Assembly (NCBI GenBank): GCA_011321815.1
Contig: DROS01000096.1
Coordinates: forward strand, 10,750-74,749
Length of the DNA: 64,000 nucleotides
Source: Gammaproteobacteria bacterium
GTDB lineage: Bacteria; Pseudomonadota; Gammaproteobacteria; SZUA-152
Direction: 5' to 3'
Shown: positions 35,241 to 51,134 of the stretch, one piece after another
Layout: every line of letters begins with the position of its first letter
How positions within the stretch are numbered: position 1 is the first letter of the stretch
Position numbers and translations under genes: made by a program
The notes under the pieces: generated by a model
What the model was told of the DNA's origin: nothing
The model's input: the letters and a program-made list of their open reading frames with translations, nothing else
Database searches by the model: none

Positions 35241-36365
35241 ATGAATACTTCCACGATCATGTGCGTGGTTGGCGCCCGACCCAACTTTATGAAAATTGCG
35301 CCGGTTATGCGGGCATTAAGCGCCTCTGATACCCTGCAACCCTGTCTGGTACACACAGGGCAGCATTATGACGCAGCGATGAAACATGCTTTTTTTGACC
35401 AGCTGGGTATTCCTGAGCCGGATGTGGATCTGGGGGTGGGATCGGGAACACATGCCGTACAAACAGCAGAAATCATGTTGCGCTTTGAGCCTGTGCTGGA
35501 TGAACATAAACCGGCGGCCATTCTGGTGGTGGGTGATGTCAATTCCACGATTGCCTGCTCTCTGGTAGCGGCAAAAAAAGGAATTCCTGTCATCCATGTG
35601 GAAGCGGGTCTGCGCAGCTATGACCGGGAAATGCCTGAAGAAATTAACCGGGTACTCACCGATCAAATTTCCGATTTACTTTTCATTACTGAATCGGATG
35701 CGGTTGCCAATCTCGAACGGGAAGGTATTGACAGCACCCGGGTTCATTTTGTCGGCAACGTGATGATCGATACATTACACCATCAACTGGACAGCGCCAC
35801 CTTACCGGAAAAGACTTTGGCTGATGTCACAAACAGCAAGGCATTATTGGAGAATGGTTACGCCCTGTTGACGTTGCACAGGCCATCCAATGTGGACACT
35901 CCGGATATTCTTGAGCGCCTGTTGAAAACCATGCAAACCATCAGTACTACGCTGCCCATTGTGTTCCCGGTTCATCCCCGCACCAAGGCCTGCATCGAAA
36001 AAGCCGGGTTGGGTGATCTGCTGGACAGTGCTGCAATTACCCGGCTGACCCCGCTGGGTTACAAGGAAATGCTGGGGCTGATGGCCAATGCCCGCATGGT
36101 GTTGACCGATTCCGGCGGCATTCAGGAAGAGACCACCGCGCTGGGTGTGCCTTGTATCACGCTGCGTGAAAACACAGAGCGACCCATTACCGTTGAGCAG
36201 GGAACCAATACCATTGTCGGAACAGATCCGGAAGTAATTCTGGCGGCATTCAATGAAACTGTGGAAAGCGGTGGAAAGGCCGGACAGGTGCCGGACAAGT
36301 GGGATGGTAAAACTGCTCAACGTATTATTGACGTTATCGAAAACTGGCTGGACGTTAAACGATAA
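35241..36365 (+). CDS. wecB: UDP-N-acetylglucosamine 2-epimerase (non-hydrolysing)
   Basis: The 374-aa product has '…GARPNFMKIAPV…HTGQHYD…' and a full-length Epimerase_2 fold. Confidence 0.9.
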   Translation: MNTSTIMCVVGARPNFMKIAPVMRALSASDTLQPCLVHTGQHYDAAMKHAFFDQLGIPEPDVDLGVGSGTHAVQTAEIMLRFEPVLDEHKPAAILVVGDVNSTIACSLVAAKKGIPVIHVEAGLRSYDREMPEEINRVLTDQISDLLFITESDAVANLEREGIDSTRVHFVGNVMIDTLHHQLDSATLPEKTLADVTNSKALLENGYALLTLHRPSNVDTPDILERLLKTMQTISTTLPIVFPVHPRTKACIEKAGLGDLLDSAAITRLTPLGYKEMLGLMANARMVLTDSGGIQEETTALGVPCITLRENTERPITVEQGTNTIVGTDPEVILAAFNETVESGGKAGQVPDKWDGKTAQRIIDVIENWLDVKR

Positions 36366-36392
36366 TTACCATTCATCATCAGAGACGATCCA

Positions 36393-37265
36393 GTGAATCA
36401 GCATACAATTACCAACGCAATGACAGTGGATGTGGAGGATTATTTTCAAGTCTCCGCATTTGAAAAAATTATTCCCCGTAGTGAATGGGACAATATCAAT
36501 GCACGAGTGGAAAAAAATACCGAAAGCGTGCTTGATATGTTTGATGAAGCCGGCGTGAAAGGCACTTTTTTTATGCTGGGCTGGGTGGCAGAGCGTTATC
36601 CGGGGTTAGTGAGCCGTATTGTTGCCGATGGACACGAACTGGCCAGTCATGGTTATTCGCACATACGTGTGGTCAATCAGCAACCACAGGCGTTTTTTGA
36701 CGATATTGTGCGTACCAAGAAGCTACTTGAAGATATGTCCGGTCAGCAAGTATGTGGTTATCGTGCTGCGAGTTATTCCATTGGCGCCAGAAATCTGTGG
36801 GCGTTGGATAAACTGAAAGAAGCGGGTTATATCTACAGTTCCAGTATTTACCCCATCAAACATGATTTATACGGCATGCCGGAGGCTCCGCGTTTTTCGT
36901 TTCGACCTCGTGGCCATGACGGCATCCTCGAAGTTCCCGTGACCACTGTGGAAGTGCTGAATAAAAAGCTTCCCTGTGGTGGCGGTGGTTACTTCCGGCT
37001 TTACCCCTATGCCGTTTCGCGCATGGCCATGCGCAGGGTGAACCGGCATGATGGTCAACCCGGCGTTTTTTATTTTCATCCCTGGGAAATTGATCCGGGA
37101 CAGCCGCGTCAAAAAGATATTAGTGCCAAGACGCGGTTTCGGCATTATTTGAATCTTGGGCGCATGGAAGGGCGCTTAAAAAGATTGCTCAGGGATTTTC
37201 AGTGGGACCGGATGGATAAAGTGTTTCTCGAACAGAATGCTCATTCCGGTAATTTAAAAAAATAA
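36393..37265 (+). CDS. Polysaccharide deacetylase, XrtA/PEP-CTERM-locus subfamily
   Basis: The 290-aa product has 'TVDVEDYFQV…GTFFMLGWVAERYP…LASHGYSH' (NodB-like motifs). Confidence 0.8.
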   Translation: MNQHTITNAMTVDVEDYFQVSAFEKIIPRSEWDNINARVEKNTESVLDMFDEAGVKGTFFMLGWVAERYPGLVSRIVADGHELASHGYSHIRVVNQQPQAFFDDIVRTKKLLEDMSGQQVCGYRAASYSIGARNLWALDKLKEAGYIYSSSIYPIKHDLYGMPEAPRFSFRPRGHDGILEVPVTTVEVLNKKLPCGGGGYFRLYPYAVSRMAMRRVNRHDGQPGVFYFHPWEIDPGQPRQKDISAKTRFRHYLNLGRMEGRLKRLLRDFQWDRMDKVFLEQNAHSGNLKK

Positions 37266-37296
37266 AATCAGATATTGCACAGGAGCAGAACGGGAC

Positions 37297-38364
37297 GTGT
37301 CAGAAACATCAATAGAAATAAAAGAACTGGATAGTCAATCCATGCAGCGCTGGGATGCCTTTGTCGAGGCATGTCCCGAAGCCACATTTTTTCATCGCGC
37401 AGGCTGGAAAAAAGCCATTGAAGCAGGCATGGGGCATCGTGCCCATTTTTTGTATGCAGAGCGCAATGGCGCCATTGAAGGTGTATTGCCATTGGGACAT
37501 GTTAAAAGTTTTTTGTTTGGCAATGCGCTGATGTCTGCACCTTTCTGTGTTTATGGTGGGGTTGCCGCCCATTCGGATGCAGCACGGGTCGCGTTGCATA
37601 AAGCCGCAGAGGAGTTGGCGCGCCGTCTTGGAGTGGATTACCTCGAAATGCGCAATGCACAGTTTGCCCGGATTGAGCCACCGGAATCGCAGTTGCCCAA
37701 TGAAGACTGGCTGGAAAAAGAACTGTATGTAACCTTTCGCAAAGAAATCGACGCCGATGCAGAAAAAAACCTGCTTTCCATTCCCCGCAAACAGCGGGCT
37801 GTTGTGCGCAAAGGGATCAAGGCAGGACTGGTCAGTGAGATAGATACGGACATCCAGCGCTTTTATGACGCGTATGCGCAAAGCGTCAGAAATCTGGGAA
37901 CACCGGTGTTTCCCAAAAAGTTTTTCTCCGTGCTGCGCGATGTATTTGGTGAACATTGTGAAGTGTTAACGGTGGTCAAGGACGGGCGGCTTATCAGTAG
38001 TGTGATGAGTTTTTATTTTCGGGATGAAGTTCTGCCTTACTACGGAGGTGGGACCAGCGAAGCGCGTGCCGTAAAAGGCAATGATTTTATGTATTGGGAA
38101 CTTATGCGTCGGGCGGGTGAGCGCGGTATTCGTGTTTTTGATTACGGCCGCAGCAAAATGGGTACAGGGTCTTACAGCTTCAAGAAAAACTGGGGATTTG
38201 AACCTGAGCCTCTGAAATACGAATACCTGCTGGTAAAAGCGAGCGAGATTCCGGATGTGAATCCACTGAATCCCAAGTACCAGTTGTTTATCAATGCCTG
38301 GAAGCGGTTGCCTTTGCCTGTTTCAAAATTTGTTGGACCGTTTATTTCCCGCAATCTGGGTTAG
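37297..38364 (+). CDS. FemAB-family (GNAT-fold) protein, PEP-CTERM-system-associated; GTG start
   Basis: The 355-aa product follows the deacetylase gene as in described XrtA loci, with '…FFHRAGWKKAIE…' and FemAB-like length. Confidence 0.75.
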   Translation: MSETSIEIKELDSQSMQRWDAFVEACPEATFFHRAGWKKAIEAGMGHRAHFLYAERNGAIEGVLPLGHVKSFLFGNALMSAPFCVYGGVAAHSDAARVALHKAAEELARRLGVDYLEMRNAQFARIEPPESQLPNEDWLEKELYVTFRKEIDADAEKNLLSIPRKQRAVVRKGIKAGLVSEIDTDIQRFYDAYAQSVRNLGTPVFPKKFFSVLRDVFGEHCEVLTVVKDGRLISSVMSFYFRDEVLPYYGGGTSEARAVKGNDFMYWELMRRAGERGIRVFDYGRSKMGTGSYSFKKNWGFEPEPLKYEYLLVKASEIPDVNPLNPKYQLFINAWKRLPLPVSKFVGPFISRNLG

Positions 38365-38469
38365 GTGTTAATAGTTGTTTTGACAGTCCAACCGGTGTTT
38401 GTTTTTTTATCCAATGCCGCAGGGAAAAACAGGAAAATTTTCCCGATAAACGGATATCAGTGAATTCAC

Positions 38470-40926
38470 TTAACCCTTATACGGCCCGGGCCAGCCTTCC
38501 AGCTCAAAGAGCGGCATGACGGCTCGCTCGGGCTGTTCCAGTTCCAGCGCCAACAATGCAGGACCGAGAGCCCCCCAGTAGAGATTCAAACTGTGTTCAT
38601 CCCAGGCAAAAGATTCGACAGTGGAATTAAAGGCGAAGCGTGCCAGTTGTTGGGCCCGGGCTAACCATACTTGATCGCCGGTGTGACGATAGACATGCAG
38701 CAAGGCAAAGGCACGCCCACTGAGGCCACAGCAAAGACGTGGGTGGCGGTCGGCATGCTCCCAGGCAAACCAAGCCGTCTGGATAGCCAGTTCCAGGTAA
38801 CGGGGACTCTGGATCAGTTCGTGAGCCAGACACCACAAATAAAGATACCCAGCACTGCCACTGCACCAGCCAGGGGCATGAGCAGGTGTCTCATTTTGTT
38901 GCCCCATATGCTGAACAGTACCAACCCATGATATACCTCGCCCGTGGAGAACCGCCTTTTCAGCCAGTTGCTCAAGATGTTTTACAAGCGTAACGGAAGG
39001 GGGTGTTTGCAGCAGTTTGTGCGCCAGTAGTTGAGCATAGAGCATACCGGCCCAACCGTGTGCGATACCCAGATGGGGCGTGGTTTGATCATTGCCGACG
39101 TCACCCAGCCCGGCAATGCGTGTGGCGGTATGCCGGGACGTTTCCCGCAGGAACTGTTCCAATGGTTTGACGGACAAGCGTGACGACCAACGCAATACAT
39201 CCAATAATATTGCAGCGCCTACTATCGGGCCGCTATGGCCGAAGGCAAATTCGTTTTGGCTTTTTCCGGCTTGTGCAGCACTCAGAAACTCTTCCACCTG
39301 TTGCGCGGTTGAGGCCATATCACCTCGTGCGTGACTGATCAAAGCGTGCACGCAGTGCAGACCACACCGCCCATGGTGAAGAGAAACATGACGGTAGTTG
39401 ATCTTTTTGTCGCTTACGGCGGGCAGCTCAAACCCCTGACTATCGTCAATTTGTGCAAGTGCCTGGCGGGACCAGAGGTCGGCACCCACAATCAGTTGCG
39501 GAGAATTGCGTATCTGTGCGGCACGGTAGAGAAACCATGCCAACCCGGCTGCACCAGACTGAATGGACAGCGTTGGTGCGGTAGTGAACAGTTCCGCTAA
39601 TGGGCGTGGAGCATCCACCGTGCGTTCCAGAATTGCATCGACCAGGGACAGCATCTTTGCGGCTGGGCGCACCTCGTCAACCTGATTGCGTTGTGTGGGG
39701 GGCTGTGCACGGCGAAAAGCCTCGCTGAACAGTTTAAGCGAAGGAAAGCGGGCCTGCGCCTTTTTGGCCATAGCGCGCTGTAACACGGATTCTATGTCAG
39801 GCCAGCTTTCAAACCCGTGTCGGGCAAAGGGTAAAGGGGGACTTTCAACCACTTCTTTGTACAGTATCCCCGCCTCGGGTACCCCGGCGATGGGGTAGGC
39901 GCCACAGATCAGATAATATACCAATGCGGCCACAGCATACTGTTCACCCGCGTAGCTTGCGGGTGGCGGCGGTTCTCCGTTCAGTAATGCACTTGCCAAT
40001 TCCGGTTCCATAAACCAGGCTAAACCGGCGCGCCGATTATGATCCGTTGCTGTCCCGCTTGTTAGCAAACGCGATAACCCGAAATCGAGCAATGTAATAT
40101 TGTTGTCGGCATCCACCAACAGGTTTTTGGGATGCACATCGGCATGGATGACACCGTGACCATGAAGTTGTGCGTAGGCATCGAGCAGACGGCAACAAAG
40201 CTGGTGTATCCGGGTGCGCCAGGAGGTTGAGGTGGCGAGACGGTGTTCCCAGAAAGGCAGGTTGATTGGCACGCCGGGACACCAGGAGGTAACCAGAAAA
40301 GGGCGTTCACGATATTGCCCCTGTTCGGCCAATTGCGGACTGCCCACCCCATGCAAATGTGTCAGAATAGCAGCCTCATGTTCCAGTGCCCGCGATACTG
40401 ATGAAGCAGTATCGGGACGTGCGATTTTTAACGCAAACAATTGCCCGTTTTTCCCCTGCACTTGATAGACTTCCACGTCCTGTAGCACTTGAATCAAGCG
40501 GCATACCTCATACCCGGCAAGCATTTGCCCATTGGCAAATGACGCATGAATACTTTCCGTTATGGGCGAATCGGCGGGAACCAGAAACTGGGCATTGGAA
40601 AAACGTATTAACGCAGGGAAGACCTGCGCCAGTGTCTCTTCCGGAACAAGGTTATGTTGACGGCTGTAACGTGCAATGGCTTCGGCAAGGGGGGACGGCG
40701 TGCGAAACGTCTGTAGCAAGATGGCAGTGTCTTTATCGACAATGCGCGAAAAAGAGCGCATGCCGGGGCGTGTAACGGCATAATCGTCATCGTTGCAGTC
40801 GAGCATCGCCCGAACATGTTCCGCCAGTTCCTGAACGGGAAACAACAAGACATCAGGCGGTAAAACATACGGTTTCTGCAAAAGTTTGCGGCGTGCTTCG
40901 TCAATCATTTGTGATCCCGTTTTCAT
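38470..40926 (-). CDS. Ser/Thr protein kinase fused to a LanC-like (lanthionine synthetase C-like) cyclase domain, with an unassigned roughly 135-aa N-terminal domain
   Basis: The kinase motifs are 'FALKIARPD' (catalytic Lys), 'HGVIHADVHPKNLLV' (catalytic loop) and 'LLDFGLSR' (DFG). The C-terminal LanC motifs are 'GAAGLAWFLY', 'GIAHGWAGM' and 'WCSGSAGY…CCGLSGRAF'. Confidence 0.8.
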   Translation of the reverse strand: MKTGSQMIDEARRKLLQKPYVLPPDVLLFPVQELAEHVRAMLDCNDDDYAVTRPGMRSFSRIVDKDTAILLQTFRTPSPLAEAIARYSRQHNLVPEETLAQVFPALIRFSNAQFLVPADSPITESIHASFANGQMLAGYEVCRLIQVLQDVEVYQVQGKNGQLFALKIARPDTASSVSRALEHEAAILTHLHGVGSPQLAEQGQYRERPFLVTSWCPGVPINLPFWEHRLATSTSWRTRIHQLCCRLLDAYAQLHGHGVIHADVHPKNLLVDADNNITLLDFGLSRLLTSGTATDHNRRAGLAWFMEPELASALLNGEPPPPASYAGEQYAVAALVYYLICGAYPIAGVPEAGILYKEVVESPPLPFARHGFESWPDIESVLQRAMAKKAQARFPSLKLFSEAFRRAQPPTQRNQVDEVRPAAKMLSLVDAILERTVDAPRPLAELFTTAPTLSIQSGAAGLAWFLYRAAQIRNSPQLIVGADLWSRQALAQIDDSQGFELPAVSDKKINYRHVSLHHGRCGLHCVHALISHARGDMASTAQQVEEFLSAAQAGKSQNEFAFGHSGPIVGAAILLDVLRWSSRLSVKPLEQFLRETSRHTATRIAGLGDVGNDQTTPHLGIAHGWAGMLYAQLLAHKLLQTPPSVTLVKHLEQLAEKAVLHGRGISWVGTVQHMGQQNETPAHAPGWCSGSAGYLYLWCLAHELIQSPRYLELAIQTAWFAWEHADRHPRLCCGLSGRAFALLHVYRHTGDQVWLARAQQLARFAFNSTVESFAWDEHSLNLYWGALGPALLALELEQPERAVMPLFELEGWPGPYKG

Positions 40927-42097
40927 GCCACAACGCAGTGGTGGGCATCCAGTTTTCTACCTGTACGCCATCCAATGCCAGACGCAACAAGGCGAAATCC
41001 CATGGCGCCGGATGGTCATCACTGTCTGCTATTGTTGATTTGGCGCGTAACAGGCTGCGTGCCAGGTGGTTGGTTATCCATAAACGCCAGCTTTCCACAT
41101 CACGCCAGCCAGGAATCAGCTCGCTGTGCGGAGGGTCTATTCCCCAGGACAACAAACCATCGGTGTCCAGTGCTGCTGTAAATGGTACGCCATGGGATGG
41201 GCAGTCCTGCAATATCTTTTTCAGGTGTTTCGCCACCCGCGCCAGGGTGCGGTAATTTTCAAAATACGCCACCAGTTTGTCGGGCCGTAATATTCCAAAC
41301 AGATCCTGTCCCAGCTTGAATGACGGCACACCCATTTCAACAAAACAGCGCGCAATTTTGGGTAACACCTCGCTCAATACCCCGGGGGTCGGACTAATGT
41401 AGAGTTTGCAAGTCAAAGGTTCACTACGATCAAATGCCCCCTGCTGATGGTGCCATGCCAGCCACCCTGGCACGTTATGAAACACAAAGTGCTCATCAAG
41501 CAAACGATGTACTGCGCCACCAGGCTGAAGCCCCAAATGATTCTGTATCGCACGTTGGTCCGAAAGACGGTGAGCCCATGCAGGTGTTACTGGCATGCGG
41601 TGATAGCGATAGAGCCAGCGTGATAACGCCTTAGGGTCATCTATGGGAAGAGTCTGAGCCGCCTGCAAGGCGGCGTGTGAACAGGTTGTCAAAACATCGG
41701 CAGGTTCAGGAATGTTGGGTGTGGCGGCGAGAAGTGCTTTGCAGGCTGCCGGACCACTGAAAAAACGGCCCTCTTCTTCGATTTCCAGAATACCGTCCAG
41801 CACCATGCCCGCAATCCCTGCCTTATTCTGCAGGATGTCTGCGGGTAACGTCGCAGGCTGTCCGAGGCGTTGCAATAACGCAGCACTATTATTATCAACC
41901 GCCAGAATACCCAACGCGGGCTCCTGGTGTGGGACTAACACACCGTACTGACCGGCATCCGCAGCGAGTTCACGAAAGGGGGCCGCAGACACTGGAGGCA
42001 GCTGTTCATAGCCAACTAACCGGAATGCCGGGCTGGCGCGAAACAGGCGGCCTTCCAGGGGTTGAAGCTGAAGCCAGCTATGTTCGCCTGTTAACAT
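40901..42097 (-). CDS. Hypothetical 398-aa protein, middle gene of the kinase-LanC operon
   Basis: This ORF is translationally coupled on both sides: it overlaps the downstream kinase-LanC gene by 26 nt and the upstream 168-aa gene by 7 nt. I can assign no motif by eye. Confidence 0.5.
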   Translation of the reverse strand: MLTGEHSWLQLQPLEGRLFRASPAFRLVGYEQLPPVSAAPFRELAADAGQYGVLVPHQEPALGILAVDNNSAALLQRLGQPATLPADILQNKAGIAGMVLDGILEIEEEGRFFSGPAACKALLAATPNIPEPADVLTTCSHAALQAAQTLPIDDPKALSRWLYRYHRMPVTPAWAHRLSDQRAIQNHLGLQPGGAVHRLLDEHFVFHNVPGWLAWHHQQGAFDRSEPLTCKLYISPTPGVLSEVLPKIARCFVEMGVPSFKLGQDLFGILRPDKLVAYFENYRTLARVAKHLKKILQDCPSHGVPFTAALDTDGLLSWGIDPPHSELIPGWRDVESWRLWITNHLARSLLRAKSTIADSDDHPAPWDFALLRLALDGVQVENWMPTTALWHENGITND

Positions 42098-42597
42098 TCA
42101 CCTTTGGAGGAACGCAATTCTTCCAGTGCCCCTTCAAACATGGGTATCAGTTCCTGTGCATCTGTCTTTGCACGGCGTGCGGCAACCGCTTCGACGCCTT
42201 CAATTCTCGCCACGGCTTCGTTGAGCAGGCCTTTGACATATACAAGGTCATCCAATTGAAAGCCGCCTATGCTGGAGGCAAAGGGAGAAATGTTTTCGTT
42301 AGCCTCACAGGTCGCCATATCCTGGGAACAAAGTGCCAGCAATCCGCCGCCGACTGCCGCGCGCCCGATGTCTGTTGCCACGCGCTCAAGCTGGGCCGGT
42401 TCAAGACGGTTGATCTCTCCTTTATAACTATCCAGAAATTGCAGTTTATAAACATCCCGTGCCACGGCAATCACTGGTGTAAGCGGTGTGGGAAACTCCG
42501 AGGTGTCTGAATCAGGTCCTGGATAAGCGACACTTCCTCCACCCGTTTTGAGTGGCATAAGATTGACCATTAAATCTTTCACTTTATATGTACGCAT
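42091..42597 (-). CDS. Hypothetical 168-aa protein, first gene of the kinase-LanC operon (candidate substrate or accessory protein)
   Basis: It has a good Shine-Dalgarno sequence (GGAGAAAAGCC-ATG). A Ser/Thr/Pro-rich patch 'PGPDSDTSEFPTPLTP' is present and the C-terminus ends '…LRSSKGEC'. Confidence 0.45.
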   Translation of the reverse strand: MRTYKVKDLMVNLMPLKTGGGSVAYPGPDSDTSEFPTPLTPVIAVARDVYKLQFLDSYKGEINRLEPAQLERVATDIGRAAVGGGLLALCSQDMATCEANENISPFASSIGGFQLDDLVYVKGLLNEAVARIEGVEAVAARRAKTDAQELIPMFEGALEELRSSKGEC

Positions 42598-43342
42598 GGC
42601 TTTTCTCCTTTGAGAGACGAAATACGCACCGGCTCCTTGATATTGGATGGTGGTAAAAGTTAATGACTAAATCATTCGTTACATTACCAGTAGCGACGCT
42701 GCCTTCCTTCCAGATTGACGCTTTACGAATGGCAAGCGGAGAGACGGAAAAAAACGGAGCCCTCACTGCAACTATAGACTATATATACCCGTAGCGATTG
42801 AGATTCAGGCCTGATTGCACGCCCTGTTTCCGCCATGGCCGCGTTGTTGTCCTTGTCATAGAATAACGATTACGTGTCATGTCGCCTCGCCATGCAGAAA
42901 ATATGACGCACACTTAAACCGAAACCCCAAACGCCACGAGTATATGGCGCTGTGTCATCAATGTGATAATGACCGGAAATTTCATAAATGTGATTTTTAG
43001 GGTGTAAAAAAACGTGACCGTCCGGTTAAGGAAATCCGGCGATTCTGATGAAATCACGCCTAACAACAAACGTCGTGCCTTGATGACATCAATGCCTGTG
43101 CCAGCAGCAGGTCTTACCCAACCGGGGTGTTCTTTATGTTTAAAAAATGCCAAATTTAAAGGAACAACCTGGGGCGCTTGTCCGTCTACACGGCGTAAGA
43201 GTCTCGGTAGTTACCTCATCAGATAAGAATTTGAGTACCGTGTCGCAAATCAATCGACTGTCAGTCAATATGCCGGGCGCAGGGACGATGATATTTCCCG
43301 GAAGCTGTGTGCTCCCCCGTTTAGTAAGCAGAGGAATGTGTA

Positions 43343-46300
43343 ATGCCATGGATTAAGCCCGTTTTCCCTTCCACTATATGCTGTCCCCGTCGTTTTGTAT
43401 CGGCGTTTTTCTTTTTCGCGGTGTTACTGATTTCAAACCATGCCTTCGCTGTAATTGGTGCGGCGCCAAACACCACCATTCAGAATCTCCCCGCCAACAC
43501 CTGGTACGAGGTTCCGAACAGCGAGATGCGTCAAGTGGAAGCCAAGGGCGCGGATTATCCCGGCATCTGGGGTAACCACCCGGATGATCCCACGCCAAGG
43601 AAGAGCAACTTTCCAAGTGGTCAGGGGGTTTTTCTGTGGAGTGGTGCAGTGTTTGACGACTATCGCAATCGCCTGGTGTTATGGGGTGGTGGGCACAACT
43701 CATACTACGGTAACGAGCTTTATGCCTTTGATCTCACCTCCTTAAACTGGGAACGGGTTACCAACCCCTCGCCGCCCACTTATGATGATATTTGTGTTGC
43801 TGTTTTGTCTGATGGCAACCCCAATAGCCGCCACACTTATTACAATCTGGCCTATATCCCCACCACAGACAAATTTTTTTCCACGCCGGCAGGGACCACA
43901 TCCTGCGAGGCTTCCGGATTGGATTTCAACACCTGGAGCTTTGATTTCGATAGTAAAGACTGGCTCAATCTTGCCCCCGCCACCGAACTTAACGGTAACG
44001 GCAAGGCAGTACAGCCCCCGGGTTGGGCGCCTACGGCGGCGGCTTACAATCCACTGGATAACAAGGTGTACTCTGTTGGCCCCGAGGGGCTGTTTGCCTA
44101 CGATGTGGTTGCCAATCGTTGGGATAAACTGAATTCCTCCGGATTGGGGGGAGACCGCGGTGTGGTGGTGGACGAGAAGCGTGAGCTGCTAGTCGTGGTG
44201 GGGCGTGGTGAGGTGGTGGTCTACGATTTGGCCAATCAGAATTATACCCCCCAATTCTGGGATACCGTGGGTGATGAGGACTATAACCTTAATAATAATT
44301 TCCGCCCGGGTGTGAATTACGATCCGGTGGCGGACCGCATCGTAGTGTGGGATGGGGGAGCCGTGCGTGCGCTCAATATGGATACCCGTCGCTGGGATGA
44401 TCTTGCGGTGGCGCCCCAGGTGCGCCATTTTACGGGCACTTACGGTCGCTTTCGCTATAGCCGACGGGAAAACGCCTATGTGTTGGTCAATGATGCGACA
44501 GAGAATGTACTGATCTACAAGCTGGCAGACCCTGCTGCCTTGCGGGTGGTTCTGGACCCTGTTGATATTGCCGTGGATCAGGGGCAAACCGCAACATTCA
44601 GTGTGTTCGCAATTGGTGATAGTGAGCTTAGCTATCAGTGGCGCAAAAACGGAGGAGTCATTGACGGTGCCACACAGGCAAGTTACACACTCACGGCCTC
44701 CGATATGGCTGACAATGATGCGGAGTTTGATGTCGAAATCACCAATAATGGCAGCAGCCTGATCAGCGCTTCCGCCAGGCTTACGATTGTTCAGGACATT
44801 GATGCCCCGACAGTGGTTTCTGTACTGCCCCTTGGGGCTGACACTGTCCAGGTGGTGTTCAGCGAGCCGGTGGAAACAGCGTCGGCACAAAATGCCAGTC
44901 GTTACAGCCTCGCGCCTTCCGTCACAGTCAATAGTGCTGTGCTGGCGGCCAACACTCGGGTGGTGTTGCTTGATGTCAGTGGCCTCAGTGAGGGCACTGA
45001 ATACACCCTGATCATTGACGACGGTATCAGCGACCGCGCTATTGTGCCCAACGTCATGACAGAAATGACCAATGTCAATTTTGTCTATCGCGCCAATGAA
45101 GGGTTCGAGGGTGGTGATGCCGCAGGTTTTGAGCCCCAAACGCCATCGCGCTGGACGGTGGTACAGGACGGTGGTGATTACGCCTACAGTCTTAATACTT
45201 CAAATTTTGACAGCCCTGGCAATGGCTTGTTGGGTGAATACAGTCTGTTGCCGGGGATCTATGGTGACGTGGTGTTTAGCGTTAATGCCCGGCTGGGTGA
45301 CGAGGTGGCCAGTAATAATTTCGCTGATATGGCGCTGTTGTTTGGTTATCAGGACGCCAATAACTATTACTATCTGCTTCTTAATAATGCAATGTCTGCC
45401 ACGCAATTGTTCAAAGTGGAATCGGGTCGCCGTAGCGAACTGGCCACGGCCACGACGGACTGGTTGAATGACAACCTTTATCACGCCATTGACATTGTGC
45501 GTAGTGGTGATCAAATCCGGGTCACTTTTGATGGCAACATGCTGCTGAGCGCCACGGATGCCACGTTTGCGATGGGTCGTCTGGGCGTTGGCAGCTTCAA
45601 TGATTCCGCCTTTTTTGATGACGTTCGCGTACGTGCGGTACCTGCTGGTGGTGCCACCAATAGCGCGCCCACGGCTGCCAGTGCCAGTATTACAACCAAT
45701 GAAAACACACCGAGCGGAGGTGTATCCGCGCAGGTAACAGACCCGGATGATGGCGCTGATCATGTTATCAGCATTGTTTTACAGCCTTCGAACGGTACTG
45801 CACAGGTGATTAACAACAAGCTGGTTTACACGCCAGGCACAGGATTTGTCGGCAATGACAGCTTCCAGTTCAGCGCCACGGACTCGGGCGGGCTGTCTGT
45901 CACCGGTATTGCCAGCGTTACGGTGTTGGCCGCGGGGGGTGGAAACAATGCACCCACCGCCGCCAGTGCCAGCATCACTACCTACGAAGATACATCGAGC
46001 GAAGGTGTGTCCGCGCAGGTAACAGACCCGGATGATGGCGCCGATCATGTTATCAGCATTGTTTTACAGCCTTCGAACGGCACTGCACAGGTGATTAACA
46101 ACAAGCTGGTTTACACGCCAGATAGCGGTTTTGTCGGTGATGACAACTTCCAGTTCAGTGCCACGGATTCGGGCGGGCTGTCTGTCACCGGTACCGCCAG
46201 CGTCACAGTGTTGGCAGAAGAGCCGTCTGACAATGGCGGCAGTTCCACGGTGGGTGGTGGCAGCGGTGGTGGCGGTGGCAGTTTTGGCGTATTGCTGCTA

Positions 46301-46402
46301 TTGGCCCTGTTGTTCATGAAATACAGTTTTGTCTTTCTTTCTGTTCCGGCACATCGTCAAAATAATCTTGATGCTGTACTGAGGGTTGATCAGTTGTCCT
46401 GA
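43343..46402 (+). CDS. Large secreted multi-domain surface protein (Kelch/beta-propeller-like region, Ig-like domains, concanavalin/LamG-like domain, two tandem cadherin/VCBS-like repeats, Gly-rich linker and a C-terminal hydrophobic anchor)
   Basis: The 1019-aa product has a signal peptide (…FFFAVLLISNHAFAV) and an Ig-like segment '…FSVFAIGDSELSYQWRKNGGVIDGATQASYTLTASD…'. Two 95-aa repeats are present. The C-terminus is 'GGGSGGGGGSFGVLLLLALLFMKY…'. Confidence 0.75.
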   Translation: MPWIKPVFPSTICCPRRFVSAFFFFAVLLISNHAFAVIGAAPNTTIQNLPANTWYEVPNSEMRQVEAKGADYPGIWGNHPDDPTPRKSNFPSGQGVFLWSGAVFDDYRNRLVLWGGGHNSYYGNELYAFDLTSLNWERVTNPSPPTYDDICVAVLSDGNPNSRHTYYNLAYIPTTDKFFSTPAGTTSCEASGLDFNTWSFDFDSKDWLNLAPATELNGNGKAVQPPGWAPTAAAYNPLDNKVYSVGPEGLFAYDVVANRWDKLNSSGLGGDRGVVVDEKRELLVVVGRGEVVVYDLANQNYTPQFWDTVGDEDYNLNNNFRPGVNYDPVADRIVVWDGGAVRALNMDTRRWDDLAVAPQVRHFTGTYGRFRYSRRENAYVLVNDATENVLIYKLADPAALRVVLDPVDIAVDQGQTATFSVFAIGDSELSYQWRKNGGVIDGATQASYTLTASDMADNDAEFDVEITNNGSSLISASARLTIVQDIDAPTVVSVLPLGADTVQVVFSEPVETASAQNASRYSLAPSVTVNSAVLAANTRVVLLDVSGLSEGTEYTLIIDDGISDRAIVPNVMTEMTNVNFVYRANEGFEGGDAAGFEPQTPSRWTVVQDGGDYAYSLNTSNFDSPGNGLLGEYSLLPGIYGDVVFSVNARLGDEVASNNFADMALLFGYQDANNYYYLLLNNAMSATQLFKVESGRRSELATATTDWLNDNLYHAIDIVRSGDQIRVTFDGNMLLSATDATFAMGRLGVGSFNDSAFFDDVRVRAVPAGGATNSAPTAASASITTNENTPSGGVSAQVTDPDDGADHVISIVLQPSNGTAQVINNKLVYTPGTGFVGNDSFQFSATDSGGLSVTGIASVTVLAAGGGNNAPTAASASITTYEDTSSEGVSAQVTDPDDGADHVISIVLQPSNGTAQVINNKLVYTPDSGFVGDDNFQFSATDSGGLSVTGTASVTVLAEEPSDNGGSSTVGGGSGGGGGSFGVLLLLALLFMKYSFVFLSVPAHRQNNLDAVLRVDQLS
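45656..46225 (+). repeat. Two tandem 285-bp near-identical repeats inside the surface-protein gene
   Basis: The anchor 'gccagtgccag' occurs at 45677 and at 45962 (period 285 bp). The encoded repeats '…APTAASASITT…VSAQVTDPDDGADHVISIVLQPSNGTAQVINNKLVYTP…FQFSATDSGGLSVTG…' are more than 90% identical. Confidence 0.8.
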
Positions 46403-46770: not shown

Positions 46771-48234
46771 ATGATCGGGATGCTTAAAAACACCGTCAAA
46801 CAGGCATTTCTTCGCCGGATTGCGGCCTCTGATCGCAAGGCTTTTGCGCAGCGGGGGCTCGATTTGCATGGTCTTTCACCGTCTCACTGGAATTTGAATA
46901 TCAACGAATCCGGTCACCTGGAGGCGCAGGGTTGCGACCTGGTTTCCCTCGCCAGGCAATATGGCGCACCGCTGTATGTGGTGGATAGGGAGAGGCTGGC
47001 CCGAAATTATCGCGCCTTTTATGATGCGTTTGCCGATCATTATCCCAAGGTTGTGATTGGCACCTCCTACAAAACCAACCCGTTACCGCGGGTAATCAGC
47101 GCGTTGCATGAATGTGGCGCCTGCGCGGAAGTCATTTCCCATTTTGAGCTTTGGCTGGCCCTGAAACTGGGTGTGCCCGGGTCTTCCATTATCGTCAACG
47201 GTCCGGGCAAAACCCGCGAAGGGTTGGAGCTGGCTATTTCCCATCAGGCCAAGATCATCAACATTGATGGCCTGCACGAAATCGAGTGGATTGCGGACTT
47301 GATGAAAAAATATGATCACCGGCAACGGGTTGGTGTGCGGGTGGTGACCTCGGTGGGATGGTCGGCGCAATTCGGGCTGGGCATTGGCAATGGTGATGCG
47401 TTGAAGGCGTTTCAACAATTGCGTGCACGCGAGCAGATTGAACCCTGTGGCATACATGTGCACCTTGGTACCGGGATTCGCAATATCGAAACCTATCTGA
47501 AGGCGATAAAAGAAGTGCTGGAGTTTGCCCGCCTGTTGAAGCGTGATCTCGACATTGATATCCGTTATTTTGATTTTGGCGGTGGCTTTGGTGTGCCCAC
47601 CGTGCGTGAATTTTCGGAGATTGATGTAATGTTGCGGGCCAATAATATGCCCGTACGGCCACTGGACACGGAGGCCTGTCCTGATATCGCAGAATACGGA
47701 AAGGCCATCAGCGCACTGATGAGCCAGTATTACCCGCTCGCTGATCCTGCGGCGCCCACCCTGATATTTGAACCGGGGCGCGCCATTACCAGCAGTGCGC
47801 AGATGCTGTTGCTGGAAGTATTGGCCACCAAAGCGGGCGCCAATGGCGTGACCAATATCATTGCCAACGGCGGGAAAAATATCGCCATGCCAACGGGGTA
47901 CGAGTATCACGAGTTGTTCGTGGCCTCAAAAATGAATGCGCCGCGTAGCGGTCGTTGCAGCGTCTTTGGCCCCTTGTGCCATCCTGGCGATATACTTTTC
48001 AAGTTAAAAAAACTGCCCGATGTCTCCGCAGGCGATATTCTCGCCATCATGGATGCCGGCGCCTATTTTGTGCCGAACCAGATGAATTTTTCCAACCCGA
48101 GACCCCCGGCGGTCATGTTACAAGAGGGCAAGGCGGAGTTGATTCGTGAGCGGGAAAGTTTCGAAAACATCATTTCCCTGGATCAATTACAAGCTGAAAC
48201 CGGTCGCTGCGATTCTGCGGCGGTCAATCAATGA
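46771..48234 (+). CDS. PLP-dependent decarboxylase (Orn/DAP/Arg decarboxylase fold), exosortase A system-associated
   Basis: The 487-aa product has an alanine racemase-like TIM barrel plus a C-terminal beta domain ('…GPLCHPGD…' region). It lies immediately upstream of the GT and xrtA genes. Confidence 0.8.
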   Translation: MIGMLKNTVKQAFLRRIAASDRKAFAQRGLDLHGLSPSHWNLNINESGHLEAQGCDLVSLARQYGAPLYVVDRERLARNYRAFYDAFADHYPKVVIGTSYKTNPLPRVISALHECGACAEVISHFELWLALKLGVPGSSIIVNGPGKTREGLELAISHQAKIINIDGLHEIEWIADLMKKYDHRQRVGVRVVTSVGWSAQFGLGIGNGDALKAFQQLRAREQIEPCGIHVHLGTGIRNIETYLKAIKEVLEFARLLKRDLDIDIRYFDFGGGFGVPTVREFSEIDVMLRANNMPVRPLDTEACPDIAEYGKAISALMSQYYPLADPAAPTLIFEPGRAITSSAQMLLLEVLATKAGANGVTNIIANGGKNIAMPTGYEYHELFVASKMNAPRSGRCSVFGPLCHPGDILFKLKKLPDVSAGDILAIMDAGAYFVPNQMNFSNPRPPAVMLQEGKAELIRERESFENIISLDQLQAETGRCDSAAVNQ

Positions 48235-48252
48235 TCTGCCGGGGCCAGTGAC

Positions 48253-49485
48253 GTGGAAGACCTGCTGTTCCTTACTCACCGTATTCCCTATCCGCCCAAT
48301 AAAGGCGATAAAATTCGCTCGTTTAACCTGCTCAAACAGTTGGTTAAGGATTACCGGGTGCATCTCGGCACATTTATTGATGATCCCGTTGACTGGCAAT
48401 ACGTTGCTGAGCTGGACAGGCTTTGTGAGCAGACCTGCTATGTGGGGCTGAATCCACTTGCTGCCAAACTGCGCAGCACCCGAGGGTTTCTTACGGGCGA
48501 GGCGCTGACGCTGCCTTATTACCGGAATGCGCGCATGCAGAAATGGGTGGATGGCACTCTGCATGAGCATTCCATAAACAGAGTGCTGATTTTTTCTTCA
48601 GCTATGTGTCAATACCTGTTGCATGATAGCGCCAGCCATACTCGCCGCGTGGTTGATTTTGTCGATATTGATTCCGACAAATGGAAACAATACAGCGAAT
48701 CATTAAAGTGGCCCATGAGCTGGGTATACAAGCGCGAAAGCAAAACCCTGCTGGAATTTGAACGCCGTGTGGCCAGACAATTTGATGCATCGATTTTTGT
48801 ATCCCAGGCCGAGTCGGCTATGTTTAAAAAACTGGCGCCGGAAAGCGCCGCCCGGGTGGGTTATATAGAAAATGGTGTTGATGCCGACTATTTTTCTCAA
48901 AGCCAAAACCTGCAAAATCCCTATGCACCGGAGGAAAAGGTACTGGTGTTTACCGGAGCAATGGATTACTGGGCCAATGCCGATGCCGTTGTGTGGTTTG
49001 CGCAAGCAGTGTTTCCGGACATTCTTAAGCAGGTGCCTGAGGCACGGTTTTATATTGTGGGCGGCCGCCCCGGCGAAGCGGTAAAAAAGCTGGATGCGGA
49101 AGCCGGGGTTCATGTAACAGGTTCGGTAAAGGAGATTCGTCCGTATCTGGCGTATGCGCAGGCTGCTGTTGCGCCGTTAAGAATTGCACGAGGTGTGCAA
49201 AACAAGGTGCTGGAGGCAATGGCCATGGAAAAGCCAGTGCTGGCAACCTCGGCGGCATTGGACGGCATTGTGGATTGCGCGGCCTTGGAAACGCTCAGAG
49301 CCGATGATCCCGGTGTAATGGCAAGCAAGGCGGTTGAATTATTGACCACGGATATTGGTGAAGCGCTGGGTAAGGCGGGCCGGACTTGTATTACTGCCCA
49401 TTACGACTGGGCCCGTAATCTCAACCGTATAGAACAGTTGCTGGAAAATACTGATGGCACCGGTCCGGGGATGAAGAACATATGA
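48253..49485 (+). CDS. Glycosyltransferase family 4 (GT1 fold), PEP-CTERM/XrtA system-associated 'stp1' type
   Basis: The N-terminus is 'LLFLTHRIPYPPNKGDKIR' and the product has a C-terminal GT1 domain. It overlaps the xrtA start. Confidence 0.8.
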   Translation: MEDLLFLTHRIPYPPNKGDKIRSFNLLKQLVKDYRVHLGTFIDDPVDWQYVAELDRLCEQTCYVGLNPLAAKLRSTRGFLTGEALTLPYYRNARMQKWVDGTLHEHSINRVLIFSSAMCQYLLHDSASHTRRVVDFVDIDSDKWKQYSESLKWPMSWVYKRESKTLLEFERRVARQFDASIFVSQAESAMFKKLAPESAARVGYIENGVDADYFSQSQNLQNPYAPEEKVLVFTGAMDYWANADAVVWFAQAVFPDILKQVPEARFYIVGGRPGEAVKKLDAEAGVHVTGSVKEIRPYLAYAQAAVAPLRIARGVQNKVLEAMAMEKPVLATSAALDGIVDCAALETLRADDPGVMASKAVELLTTDIGEALGKAGRTCITAHYDWARNLNRIEQLLENTDGTGPGMKNI

Positions 49486-51134
49486 GTGGCACGAATCCAC
49501 TAACGCAGGAAGCCACAGAAAACACTGACGACAAGGGCGTTTTAACGGAAGCACCTGTTATCGACACGAATATCCACCACAAAGATGACCGTTGGCGAAA
49601 TGCCCTGATATCTTTTGGTTTGCTTCTGTCGGTGGCGTTAATCCTGTATTGGGAAACCGCGGCGTCCATCGTCGCAATCTGGATACGTTCGGAAACCTAT
49701 GCCCATGGATTTTTGATACTGCCTATCAGCCTCTACCTTGTGTGGCAACGCCGGAAACAACTGCGTCAAATGGTACCCGCGCCAAATCTGATGGCGTTGC
49801 CAGTATTGGCGGTTTCTCTATTGTTGTGGCTTGCGGCGTGGGTTGCGGAAGTCCAGCTTGTTCAGCAACTGGTTTTTGTCGGTTTTATTCCCATTTTGGT
49901 TGTATTGCTGTTTGGCGCTGCTGTGGCAAAGGCGATGATGTTTCCCCTGGGTTATCTGATTTTTGCGGTGCCTTTTGGTGAGTTTCTGGTTGCCCCGTTA
50001 CAGGATCAGACGGCATGGTTTGCCGTGAAAGCGCTGATGTTGAGTGGCGTGCCTGTTTATTGGGAGGGACTTTATCTTACTATCCCCGGTGGTAATTTTG
50101 TTGTGGCTGAAGGTTGTAGCGGTATTCGCTATCTGATTGCCTCCATTGCGCTCAGCAGTATTTATGCTTATATCACCTATCGCAGTTATTGGAGACGCGC
50201 GGGCTTTATTTTGCTGGGCGTGATTGTGCCCATTGTTGCCAATGGCATACGTGCCTATGGCATTGTGGTGATCGCCTATCTCAGCGATATGCGTATCGCC
50301 ACCGGAGTGGACCATATTCTCTATGGCTGGGTTTTTTTTGGCATTGTCATGCTGTTGCTTTTTTGGTTCGGGTCTCTCTGGCGTGAACCATCCGTTGCTG
50401 ATTCCAGCGCCCTGAAACAACCGCAGGCCGACAATGCCATAACGTCATCAAATGGGCGTCAAATGATTGTTGCTTCGGTTTTTGCCGTTGTTTTTTTCGC
50501 CAGTGGGGCTTATGCCAGCAGCTTGTTGAGTGATTCATCCGCAGTGACAGGGCAGGCGGTTCGTCTTGCGTTGCCAGAATCATCGGGTGCATGGACGGGG
50601 CCGGTAGCCAGTAATGATACGTGGCAACCCCGTTATACCGGTGCAGACAGCACCATTTACCGGCAATATCAGAATCAAACCAAAACGGTTTATTTTTATG
50701 TGGCCTACTACGGGAACCAGGACAATGGCAAGGAATTGGTTGGCTCTCTCAACAGAGTGTATGACCAGGAACAATGGCGTCGTGTGCAGGACAATACTGT
50801 CACCGTAACCATGCCGTCCGGAAAAAATGTTTCTGTGGCAGAAACTGACATTCGTTCTGCGGAAAAACGACGCATCGTCTGGCACTGGTACAACATCAAT
50901 GGCAGTGTTACCGCCAACCGTGTAACCGCTAAGATGCTGGAAGCATGGGAACGCCTGAGAAACCATAAGGTTGATGCGATGCTGGTGGTGGTTGCAAGGG
51001 ACTACATAATCGACCCGCAAGAGGCACGCAATGATTTAAAGGATTTTCTTGAAAATGTGGGGGCCGACATTGCTGTGGTAAACCATAATGGCGGTGTTGC
51101 GAGCGCGAAGATTGCCGGGCCGGATCAGTTATGA
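49482..51134 (+). CDS. xrtA: Exosortase A (XrtA/EpsH) fused to a C-terminal EpsI-family domain
   Basis: The 550-aa product has 8 TM helices, a catalytic Cys motif 'VAEGCSGIRY', a conserved Arg in 'ANGIRAYGIV', and a C-terminal roughly 220-aa soluble EpsI-like domain. Confidence 0.85.
   Translation: MSGTNPLTQEATENTDDKGVLTEAPVIDTNIHHKDDRWRNALISFGLLLSVALILYWETAASIVAIWIRSETYAHGFLILPISLYLVWQRRKQLRQMVPAPNLMALPVLAVSLLLWLAAWVAEVQLVQQLVFVGFIPILVVLLFGAAVAKAMMFPLGYLIFAVPFGEFLVAPLQDQTAWFAVKALMLSGVPVYWEGLYLTIPGGNFVVAEGCSGIRYLIASIALSSIYAYITYRSYWRRAGFILLGVIVPIVANGIRAYGIVVIAYLSDMRIATGVDHILYGWVFFGIVMLLLFWFGSLWREPSVADSSALKQPQADNAITSSNGRQMIVASVFAVVFFASGAYASSLLSDSSAVTGQAVRLALPESSGAWTGPVASNDTWQPRYTGADSTIYRQYQNQTKTVYFYVAYYGNQDNGKELVGSLNRVYDQEQWRRVQDNTVTVTMPSGKNVSVAETDIRSAEKRRIVWHWYNINGSVTANRVTAKMLEAWERLRNHKVDAMLVVVARDYIIDPQEARNDLKDFLENVGADIAVVNHNGGVASAKIAGPDQL

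Follow-up and report, generated by a model that had tools for sequence, protein, structure and literature searches.

A 168-residue protein as the probable substrate of a split lanthionine-type system in a Gammaproteobacteria bacterium

The DNA considered here is a window of 64,000 nucleotides (nt), that is, the whole stretch that was analysed, from contig DROS01000096.1 of a Gammaproteobacteria metagenome-assembled genome. Within it lies a compact minus-strand operon of three genes, which encode, in this order, a protein of 168 amino acids (aa), a protein of 398 aa and a fusion of a Ser/Thr kinase with a LanC domain (Table 1). The 168-aa protein is probably the dedicated substrate of a lanthionine-type system whose three activities are split over the products of the next two genes, and the chemistry of which we infer. 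This reading is favoured because a homologue of the 168-aa gene, a lyase gene and a kinase-LanC gene follow each other in this order in most of 80 loci, and because the homologues combine conserved ends with hypervariable middles that are rich in Cys and Thr. It is also favoured because the Cys-poor branch of the family, to which the window protein belongs, keeps C90, T96, C97, S104 and P41 in regions of predicted disorder, and because the three activities appear to be intact and the 168-aa gene seems to be under purifying selection.

A sequence-only reading of the same DNA had already put the 168-aa protein forward as a candidate substrate of the kinase-LanC protein. It is still the best candidate, in view of the gene order across the 80 loci and the hypervariable Cys/Thr-rich middles. 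The features from which that reading started, namely the 168-aa open reading frame (ORF), a Ser/Thr-rich stretch, two internal Cys residues and a C-terminal tail RSSKGEC, are all present. The kinase-LanC protein is likewise retained as the enzyme, but the separate lyase gene situated between the two had been overlooked.

The three genes and their predicted activities

The 168-aa ORF is a real gene: a strong ribosome-binding site precedes it, its end overlaps the next gene, homologues exist, and the differences between strains are all synonymous. Its stop overlaps the start of the 398-aa gene in ATGTTAA (42091-42097, read from the sequence), and the latter gene shares 8-26 nt with the kinase-LanC gene, according to which start codon is chosen. 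Six close homologues were found with a word-indexed protein search, and 210 with a profile search of 1.84 billion representatives. Compared with three diverged strains, the gene has 3-4 nt differences, every one of them synonymous; in the same comparison, synonymous and non-synonymous differences number 15-16 and 13-14 in the lyase gene, and 24-25 and 18 in the kinase-LanC gene, respectively. These counts are small, and point to strong purifying selection on the 168-aa gene. The three-gene locus is found again in hydrothermal-vent metagenomes. That the ORF is a chance reading frame and no gene at all has next to no probability. The sole point in its favour is the absence of any database annotation: the protein has no match in Pfam, NCBIfam, PADLOC or PDB sequences, and only chance-level matches appear when the 22 members of its subfamily are compared with Pfam, or their alignment is used as a profile against PDB sequences. 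It is opposed by everything listed above and by the synteny, which is kept across phyla. All three products (HHI94745-HHI94747) are named 'hypothetical protein' at NCBI. As to transcription, a promoter scan gave no signal above chance. A terminator-like hairpin just past the last gene is a possible, weakly indicated operon end, the consensus scan having returned 15 such sites in the scanned region versus 6 expected by chance.

The 398-aa protein is without a match in Pfam, NCBIfam or PADLOC. Its AlphaFold model, based on 28 homologues, is confident (predicted local distance difference test score, pLDDT, 90.7; predicted template modelling score, pTM, 0.89), and 23 of the 23 best Foldseek matches in the PDB are phosphoserine/phosphothreonine lyases or lyase domains. 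Among these are HopA1 (4RSX/4RSW), ThurKC, CuvL, SalKC, OspF and SpvC, as well as LxmY from the LxmKY complex, the dehydratase of the class V lexapeptide (9DK3_B, E = 9e-7). Furthermore, the lyase homologue P0012 exceeds the threshold of the Pfam HopA1 family (PF17914; 25.9 versus 22.7 bits). Five residues, K231, Y233, K261, R271 and Y278, are invariant among 28 sequences of the lyase family, which comprises more than 358 proteins. The spacing of K261, R271 and Y278 (10 and 7 residues) equals that of K219, R229 and Y236 in CaoY, a mapping made by spacing and not by superposition. In CaoY these residues align with the catalytic residues of SpvC, being the base, the phosphate-binding Arg and the Tyr, and K219 and R229 have been examined by mutagenesis (PMC9486802). 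On the basis of its modelled fold, the 398-aa protein is predicted to supply the lyase activity that is missing from the kinase-LanC protein.

The kinase-LanC protein is made up of a region without family assignment (residues 1-138), a kinase domain (about 150-420) and a LanC domain (about 453-808). It matches the Pfam families Pkinase (63.8 bits), LANC_like (103.8 bits) and APH (PF01636; 35.4 bits). NCBIfam LanL is its best match, with 164.5 bits versus a cutoff of 650, and the LanKC model gives 98.5 bits with a cutoff of 575. Residues 139-768 only align to LanL, at profile positions 191-807, and because this alignment begins at position 191 the protein has no fused lyase domain. Among 67 full-length homologues, the kinase residues K167, H261/D263/N268 (HxDxxxxN) and D281/G283 (DFG) are invariant, and so are the acid/base residue H623 of the LanC domain and its zinc ligands C688 and C732-C733. 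In all 67 homologues, Cys-Cys-Gly (732-734) replaces the usual Cys-His-Gly at the second zinc-ligand motif; such a ProcM-like CCG motif has been tied to substrate promiscuity (PMC13509491, PMC12328550). The familyless residues 1-138 are conserved, the homologue alignments beginning near residue 16. This region, which occupies the position of the lyase domain of classes III and IV, may dock the separate lyase or the substrate. PADLOC matches of the kinase-LanC protein (PD-T4-6, mad6, MkoA) are generic kinase-domain matches and were not taken to indicate a role in defence.

Kinase, lyase and cyclase activities all appear to be intact, because the catalytic motifs of the kinase and LanC domains are invariant and the 398-aa protein has the lyase fold together with K261, R271 and Y278. 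Therefore, the operon encodes all three lanthionine-forming activities, split in a manner unlike that of classes I to VI.

Conservation of the cassette and architecture of the substrate family

The lyase family was detected in 364 species genomes, which represent no fewer than ten phyla. For a neighbourhood analysis, 80 loci around lyase homologues were taken from species genomes of Acidobacteriota, Chloroflexota, Armatimonadota, Gemmatimonadota, Planctomycetota, Eremiobacterota, Myxococcota, Pseudomonadota, Bacillota and Cyanobacteriota. A homologue of the kinase-LanC protein (aligned over residues of about 16-812) is encoded next after the lyase in about 70 of the 80, the exceptions being contig ends. 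In about 55 loci, the ORF that ends directly ahead of the lyase gene is matched by a profile built from the 168-aa protein and the five proteins most closely related to it, and a hidden Markov model (HMM) of the C-terminal helix matches the ORF upstream of the lyase in 56 of 82. Of the other 26 loci, about 16 have an upstream ORF that is shorter and carries the N-terminal motif of the family, but keeps only the first helix. The metagenomic locus L001, with a homologue 50% identical to the 168-aa protein, has the same gene order. No other conserved gene family surrounds the cassette across the 80 loci. In other organisms the cassette is also carried on plasmids, and for the copies in Bacillus and Paenibacillus the RefSeq names are limited to 'lanthionine synthetase LanC family protein' and 'hypothetical protein'.

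The family of precursor-like proteins has a common layout, with the N-terminal motif M-x-F-K-V-K-D-L-M-I-N-V-x-P, a hypervariable middle and a C-terminal amphipathic helix 'L..LK.QL...L..VE', which is often extended by '...PQT..EV..LE.KL..AL.EL'. Total length ranges from about 60 to about 480 aa. The middle regions contain a median of 12% Cys and 17% Ser+Thr, and the overall composition of 66 cores is 11% Cys, 11.5% Thr, 6% Ser and 9.5% Pro. Cys and Ser/Thr are placed in strict register: C[ST] dipeptides number 261 in the cores versus 145±9.5 in shuffles, and the offsets of +4 from Cys to Ser/Thr and of +2 from Ser/Thr to Cys have z-scores of 23 and 10.7, which are descriptive only, as internal repeats inflate the counts. 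Close relatives differ in the number of core repeats, and two tandem paralogues of the precursor occur in some loci (L002, L010 and L070). In such traits the family resembles the precursors of ribosomal peptides, though at the size of proteins. In the cores of loci L002-L081, runs of 'CTxCTx' and 'CTxxCT' and repeats of 'CTPSPP', 'CPDDT' and 'PTLCQTPTAC' are seen, over up to about 390 residues. Such a periodicity implies either very many small rings per protein or another use of Cys, such as metal binding.

Plasmid-borne copies add further arrangements. On the Paenibacillus peoriae plasmid NZ_CP011513.1 (locus L088, 5026-5778), a precursor homologue of 250 aa consists of three tandem units, each with 'MFRTVDLAANV', a 'CGITCLASCG' core and a helix; the C-terminal-helix HMM has four matches in it. 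The homologue may thus be a precursor with several cores, and cleavage could occur between the units. On the conjugative Bacillus paramycoides plasmid NZ_CP152428.1 (locus L089, 9781-11568), the kinase-LanC gene is followed by a gene for a 595-aa protein with about 12 repeats of LVCNGGQNAGQGFTANPIATNISAGGQCLPIVSVVTPLTPLISQ, in which 'TPLTPLI' echoes 'TPLTPVI' of the window protein. In this locus no upstream precursor was found, and the family HMMs have no significant match to the 595-aa protein. Two large genes for S8 (subtilisin-type) peptidases flank the cassette in that copy only.

The window protein belongs to a Cys-poor branch of the family, with two Cys residues in a middle of 97 residues, in addition to C168. 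Among 22 members of the branch, with 29-51% identity, P41, G78, C90, T96, C97, S104 and A107 are invariant. In the N-terminal motif, V6, K7, D8, L9, M10 and N12 are invariant in alignment A1. Two slots can be distinguished in the middle. Slot 1 holds 'GGG...P.PD.D...PTP(L/I)TPV', a form of the recurrent module 'GGG...P.PD...(T/S)P.(T/S)PV' that is present in 1-2 copies in 50 of 58 relatives. The best-conserved site of module 1 in the window protein is T40-P41: all 22 sequences share P41, and at position 40 each has either Thr or Ser. The Ser/Thr-rich patch described in the sequence-only reading, which is also rich in Pro, coincides with this conserved module and its '...PTP(L/I)TPV' end; its sequence PGPDSDTSEFPTPLTP corresponds to residues 26-41 and contains 6 Ser/Thr and 5 Pro among 16 residues. 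In slot 2, some members of the branch have a Cys-bearing copy of the module, 'MPDPNCGGTS.ETIPTPITPVV', while the window protein has the alternative form 'ALC(T/S)QDM.TC.AN..ISP.A'. C90 and C97 lie within LALCSQDMATCEANE, and the motif 'C.{5}TC...(I/L)S' is present in 26 of the 58 relatives. Dehydration and the formation of thioethers are proposed to take place in module 2, as far as the chemistry can be deduced. The AlphaFold model of the 168-aa protein, itself of low confidence, has one long helix over residues 115-165 and pLDDT values below 50 in both modules, which suggests that these are disordered. No signal peptide was seen in the protein by eye.

In the window, the cassette sits on the opposite strand in an exopolysaccharide locus of the exosortase A (XrtA)/PEP-CTERM type, with flanks at 35241-38364 and 46771-51134 whose genes include those for exosortase A+EpsI, the polysaccharide deacetylase of the XrtA system, an XrtA-associated protein of the FemAB family and a TIGR03087 glycosyltransferase, all above curated cutoffs. 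The cassette looks like an insertion between the genes of this locus. Divergent from it, a 1019-aa protein is encoded at 43343-46402 (plus strand), with faint Kelch/beta-propeller matches, matches to Big_5, cadherin-like and 'tandem-95' repeats, and two almost identical repeats of about 95 aa. Its length varies by strain (923 versus 1018/1019 aa), and in L086 a 465-aa ORF interrupts the region. In the same hydrothermal-vent metagenome contig (L086, 6501-7710) the lyase is called as two pieces of 226 and 190 aa and the precursor is identical; a frameshift or pseudogene would account for the split, or else a fault in the assembly. In four loci from Thermoanaerobaculia (L036, L042, L046 and L075), an ORF of 1100-1170 aa with a kinase-like region is located upstream of precursor and lyase, and the contigs stop before the point where a downstream kinase-LanC gene could appear.

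Table 1. Positions in the window of the three genes, the parts of the 168-aa protein and the associated signals
Feature	Position	Strand	Remarks
168-aa precursor-like protein gene	42091..42597	-	ATG start; HHI94747.1, NCBI 'hypothetical protein'
398-aa HopA1/LanY-like protein, predicted phospho-Ser/Thr lyase	40901..42097	-	HHI94746.1, 'hypothetical protein'
818-aa Ser/Thr kinase-LanC fusion	38470..40926	-	HHI94745.1; 812 aa from ATG 40908, the choice of the gene callers
N-terminal family motif, residues 1-15, MRTYKVKDLMVNLMP	42553..42597	-	Family consensus MxFKVKDLMINVxP
Module 1, residues 19-44, GGGSVAYPGPDSDTSEFPTPLTPVIA	42466..42543	-	Cys-less copy of the recurrent 'GGG...P.PD...(T/S)P.(T/S)PV' module
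Module 2, residues 83-107, GGGLLALCSQDMATCEANENISPFA	42277..42351	-	Invariant C90, T96, C97, S104, A107
C-terminal helical domain, residues 113-165	42103..42261	-	Consensus L..LK.QL...L..VE......PQT..EV..LE.KL..AL.EL
C-terminal tail RSSKGEC, residues 162-168	42094..42114	-	Not conserved; Cys codon TGT overlaps the ATG of the next gene
Shine-Dalgarno AAGGAG	42605..42610	-	7 nt before the ATG of the 168-aa gene; read from the sequence
Terminator-like hairpin followed by a T-run	38430..38445	-	Consensus scan; just past the kinase-LanC stop

Proposed mechanism and alternative explanations

Dehydration and cyclisation in classes III, IV and V are experimentally established (PMC10604976, PMC9486802), and the following steps are proposed by analogy with them. 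The kinase domain would phosphorylate T96, S104 and probably T40 in the two disordered modules; T40 and S104 are each followed by Pro (T40-P41, S104-P105). The stand-alone HopA1/LanY-like lyase would eliminate the phosphate, giving dehydrobutyrine or dehydroalanine (Dhb/Dha), and the zinc LanC domain, with its ProcM-like three-Cys site, would add C90 and C97 to the dehydro-residues. The product would contain one or two (methyl)lanthionine rings within residues 90-104, the candidate pairs, among which no choice is made, being C90-T96 with C97-S104, S91-C97, and C90-S104. Docking would be achieved by the short N-terminal motif, the C-terminal helix, or both. The product may stay in the cell as a modified protein or be processed by unlinked enzymes, because there is no linked protease or exporter and no visible signal peptide.

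Several observations weigh against this reading. The assignment of the lyase is based on the fold of the 398-aa protein and on the Pfam match of one homologue: sequence and profile searches of PDB sequences with its family reached neither HopA1 nor LxmY, and only the fold search did. The window protein has only three Cys residues, none of them in module 1, and therefore no thioether is possible within that module. For T96 and S104 the nearest Cys partner lies on the N-terminal side, the rarer of the two ring directions, and residue 91, the partner of C97 in the usual direction, is Ser or Thr in only about 17 of the 22 sequences. Segments outside the core are also conserved, such as G78 in 'DIGRA.VG', and helices are predicted at 41-83. 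It may be that the subfamily is a folded protein that uses its conserved Cys, Ser and Thr residues for structure or metal binding. Disorder is read from a model of the 168-aa protein that has a pLDDT of 46 and was built from six sequences. Finally, no protease or exporter/transporter is conserved near the cassette among the 80 loci.

An alternative outcome is that no ring is closed within the substrate: its conserved Ser/Thr-Pro sites would be phosphorylated and nothing more, or would end up as reactive dehydro-amino acids, or else a small thiol or a Cys of another protein would be joined to them by the LanC domain. Eukaryotic LanCL proteins add glutathione to dehydro-amino acids, and LanCL2 (6wq1) is the nearest PDB sequence match of the LanC domain. 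Module 1 of the window protein is without Cys, a Cys is nearby in only 30 of 67 such modules in the family, and the best-conserved hydroxyl sites, T40 and S104, precede Pro. Intramolecular rings provide a better fit, however, to the joint invariance of C90 and C97 with T96 and S104, and to the extreme Cys content of most members, in which Cys and Ser/Thr are kept in strict register. As a general account this outcome is unlikely; for the Cys-less module 1 especially, it is possible.

A different view would make the 168-aa protein an accessory, such as a scaffold, adaptor, regulator or immunity factor, with the enzymes acting on a protein encoded elsewhere. Such a role would suit its large size, its partly helical nature and the conserved segments outside the core, as well as the lack of a protease or transporter nearby; in the Bacillus paramycoides plasmid, moreover, the repeat-rich Cys/Thr protein comes after the enzyme and not before it. 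A hypervariable middle with about 12% Cys, variation in repeat number and concatenated units are not expected of an accessory protein, however. In addition, the 168-aa gene is the sole match of the family HMMs among window ORFs of at least 40 aa. A conventional short precursor was also sought in the 745-bp upstream spacer, where by inspection none of the listed ORFs resembles the family. We consider an accessory role to be quite unlikely.

The sequence-only reading had located the modification in the C-terminal tail, where S163 or S164, once converted to dehydroalanine, would form a single ring with C168, the rest of the protein being a very long leader. The tail RSSKGEC is indeed present, and the relatives P0002 and P0128 end in Cys too, but Cys168 is found in 3 of the 22 subfamily members, only 4 of 58 relatives have a Cys among their last three residues, and neither of the tail Ser residues is conserved. 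Across the broader family, a conserved helix without Cys forms the C-terminus. A Ser or Thr located 2-7 residues before any given Cys has a chance of about 0.5 at the Ser+Thr content of this protein (18 of 168 residues, 10.7%), so that the spacing is no more than chance would give. Furthermore, the TGT codon of C168 overlaps the ATG of the next gene. This overlap was considered as the sole explanation for a C-terminal Cys; it holds in the window and fails in L001, which has a 22-nt spacer. A conserved C-terminal Ser/Thr...Cys pattern, which that reading had suggested should be sought in homologues, is absent, the invariant sites being internal (C90, T96, C97 and S104). A ring in the tail is thus very improbable. 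The leader-like conserved N-terminal region that it had also suggested looking for does appear in the alignments, as the motif MxFKVKDLMINVxP. Its alternative of protein-level modification or a long leader has stood in the first part, a large protein-level substrate being supported; a long leader with a C-terminal core is not, since the N-terminal motif and the C-terminal helix flank the variable part.

Relation to the known lanthipeptide classes and significance

In comparison with the canonical LanA, of about 30-120 aa and with an N-terminal leader and a C-terminal core, the proposed substrate is unusually large, as had been remarked from its sequence, and its candidate core is internal. The enzymes are likewise hard to place. 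Class IV LanL enzymes (VenL, SgbL) are alike in the fusion of a Pkinase-type kinase to a zinc LanC domain, and dehydration by phosphorylation and subsequent elimination is also predicted here. However, LanL has a fused lyase domain of the OspF type, whereas the lyase of the cassette is a separate HopA1-type protein; the zinc site of the cassette is Cys/Cys-Cys instead of Cys/Cys-His; and its substrate of 168 aa is conserved at both ends, in contrast to a leader-core peptide of a few dozen residues. The class V LanK/LanY pairs (LxmK-LxmY, CaoK-CaoY) and TvaC/TvaD of the thioamitides share the combination of a stand-alone HopA1-fold lyase with a kinase on a separate polypeptide. In class V, however, the kinase is a stand-alone protein of the APH type and the clusters lack LanC, whereas the kinase of the cassette is of the Pkinase type and fused to LanC. 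Class V systems have been described mainly from actinomycetes and act on short peptides.

The class II enzyme ProcM and its prochlorosins are reminiscent of the cassette in the CCG three-Cys zinc motif and in the conserved recognition parts around hypervariable Cys/Thr-rich cores. Nevertheless, the dehydratase of LanM is a lipid-kinase-like domain with a different chemistry, and ProcM precursors have a long N-terminal leader of the Nif11/NHLP type and no conserved C-terminal domain. Class III LanKC and the streptococcal class VI LanKCb have kinase-based dehydration in common with the cassette. Hydrophobic helical motifs dock substrates in class III leaders (PMC8341899), and the N-terminal 'VKDLM' loosely recalls, by eye only, the hydrophobic ILELQ leader motif needed by LabKC (PMC8341899). 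Class III cyclases are without zinc ligands, unlike the kinase-LanC protein of the cassette, where these are invariant, and class VI enzymes differ in that they make miniature peptides, in streptococci (PMC12328550). As judged from sequence, the cassette fits none of classes I to VI, since it fails defining features of each. The six classes treated in reviews of 2025-2026 leave out this type of cassette (PMC12328550, PMC13509491), and no prior description of the three-gene cassette was found in the full-text literature, subscription journals not being covered. We rate its predicted chemistry as known, and the architecture of its enzymes and the type of its substrate as new.

On a wider view, which is possible but rather doubtful, the cassette would represent an undescribed, multi-phylum class of lanthionine-type systems, defined by a kinase-LanC protein with a three-Cys zinc site and a separate HopA1-type lyase. 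Its protein substrates of about 60-480 aa would have an N-terminal motif and a C-terminal helical 'follower' around a hypervariable core. In the furthest form of this view, the product would remain uncut in the cell as a protein stapled by thioethers or dehydro-amino acids. If this is true, it would amount to enzymatic protein-level lanthionine formation in bacteria. Should the main prediction be borne out, lanthipeptides would gain a seventh type of enzyme architecture. Hundreds of species in ten or more phyla carry the cassette, among them cultivable strains of Bacillus, Paenibacillus and Cupriavidus. Standard genome mining would overlook the substrates, because one large survey scored candidate ORFs of 30-120 aa only (PMC7268733) and because family models exist neither for the substrate nor for the lyase. 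Large, two-ended and sometimes concatenated substrates, with Cys and Thr in register, could reveal new modes of recognition. The Cys-poor branch of the window has less the look of a peptide than of a folded protein in which two loops can be modified, and it makes the long-standing question of lanthionine and dehydro-amino acids in bacterial proteins testable with three small genes.

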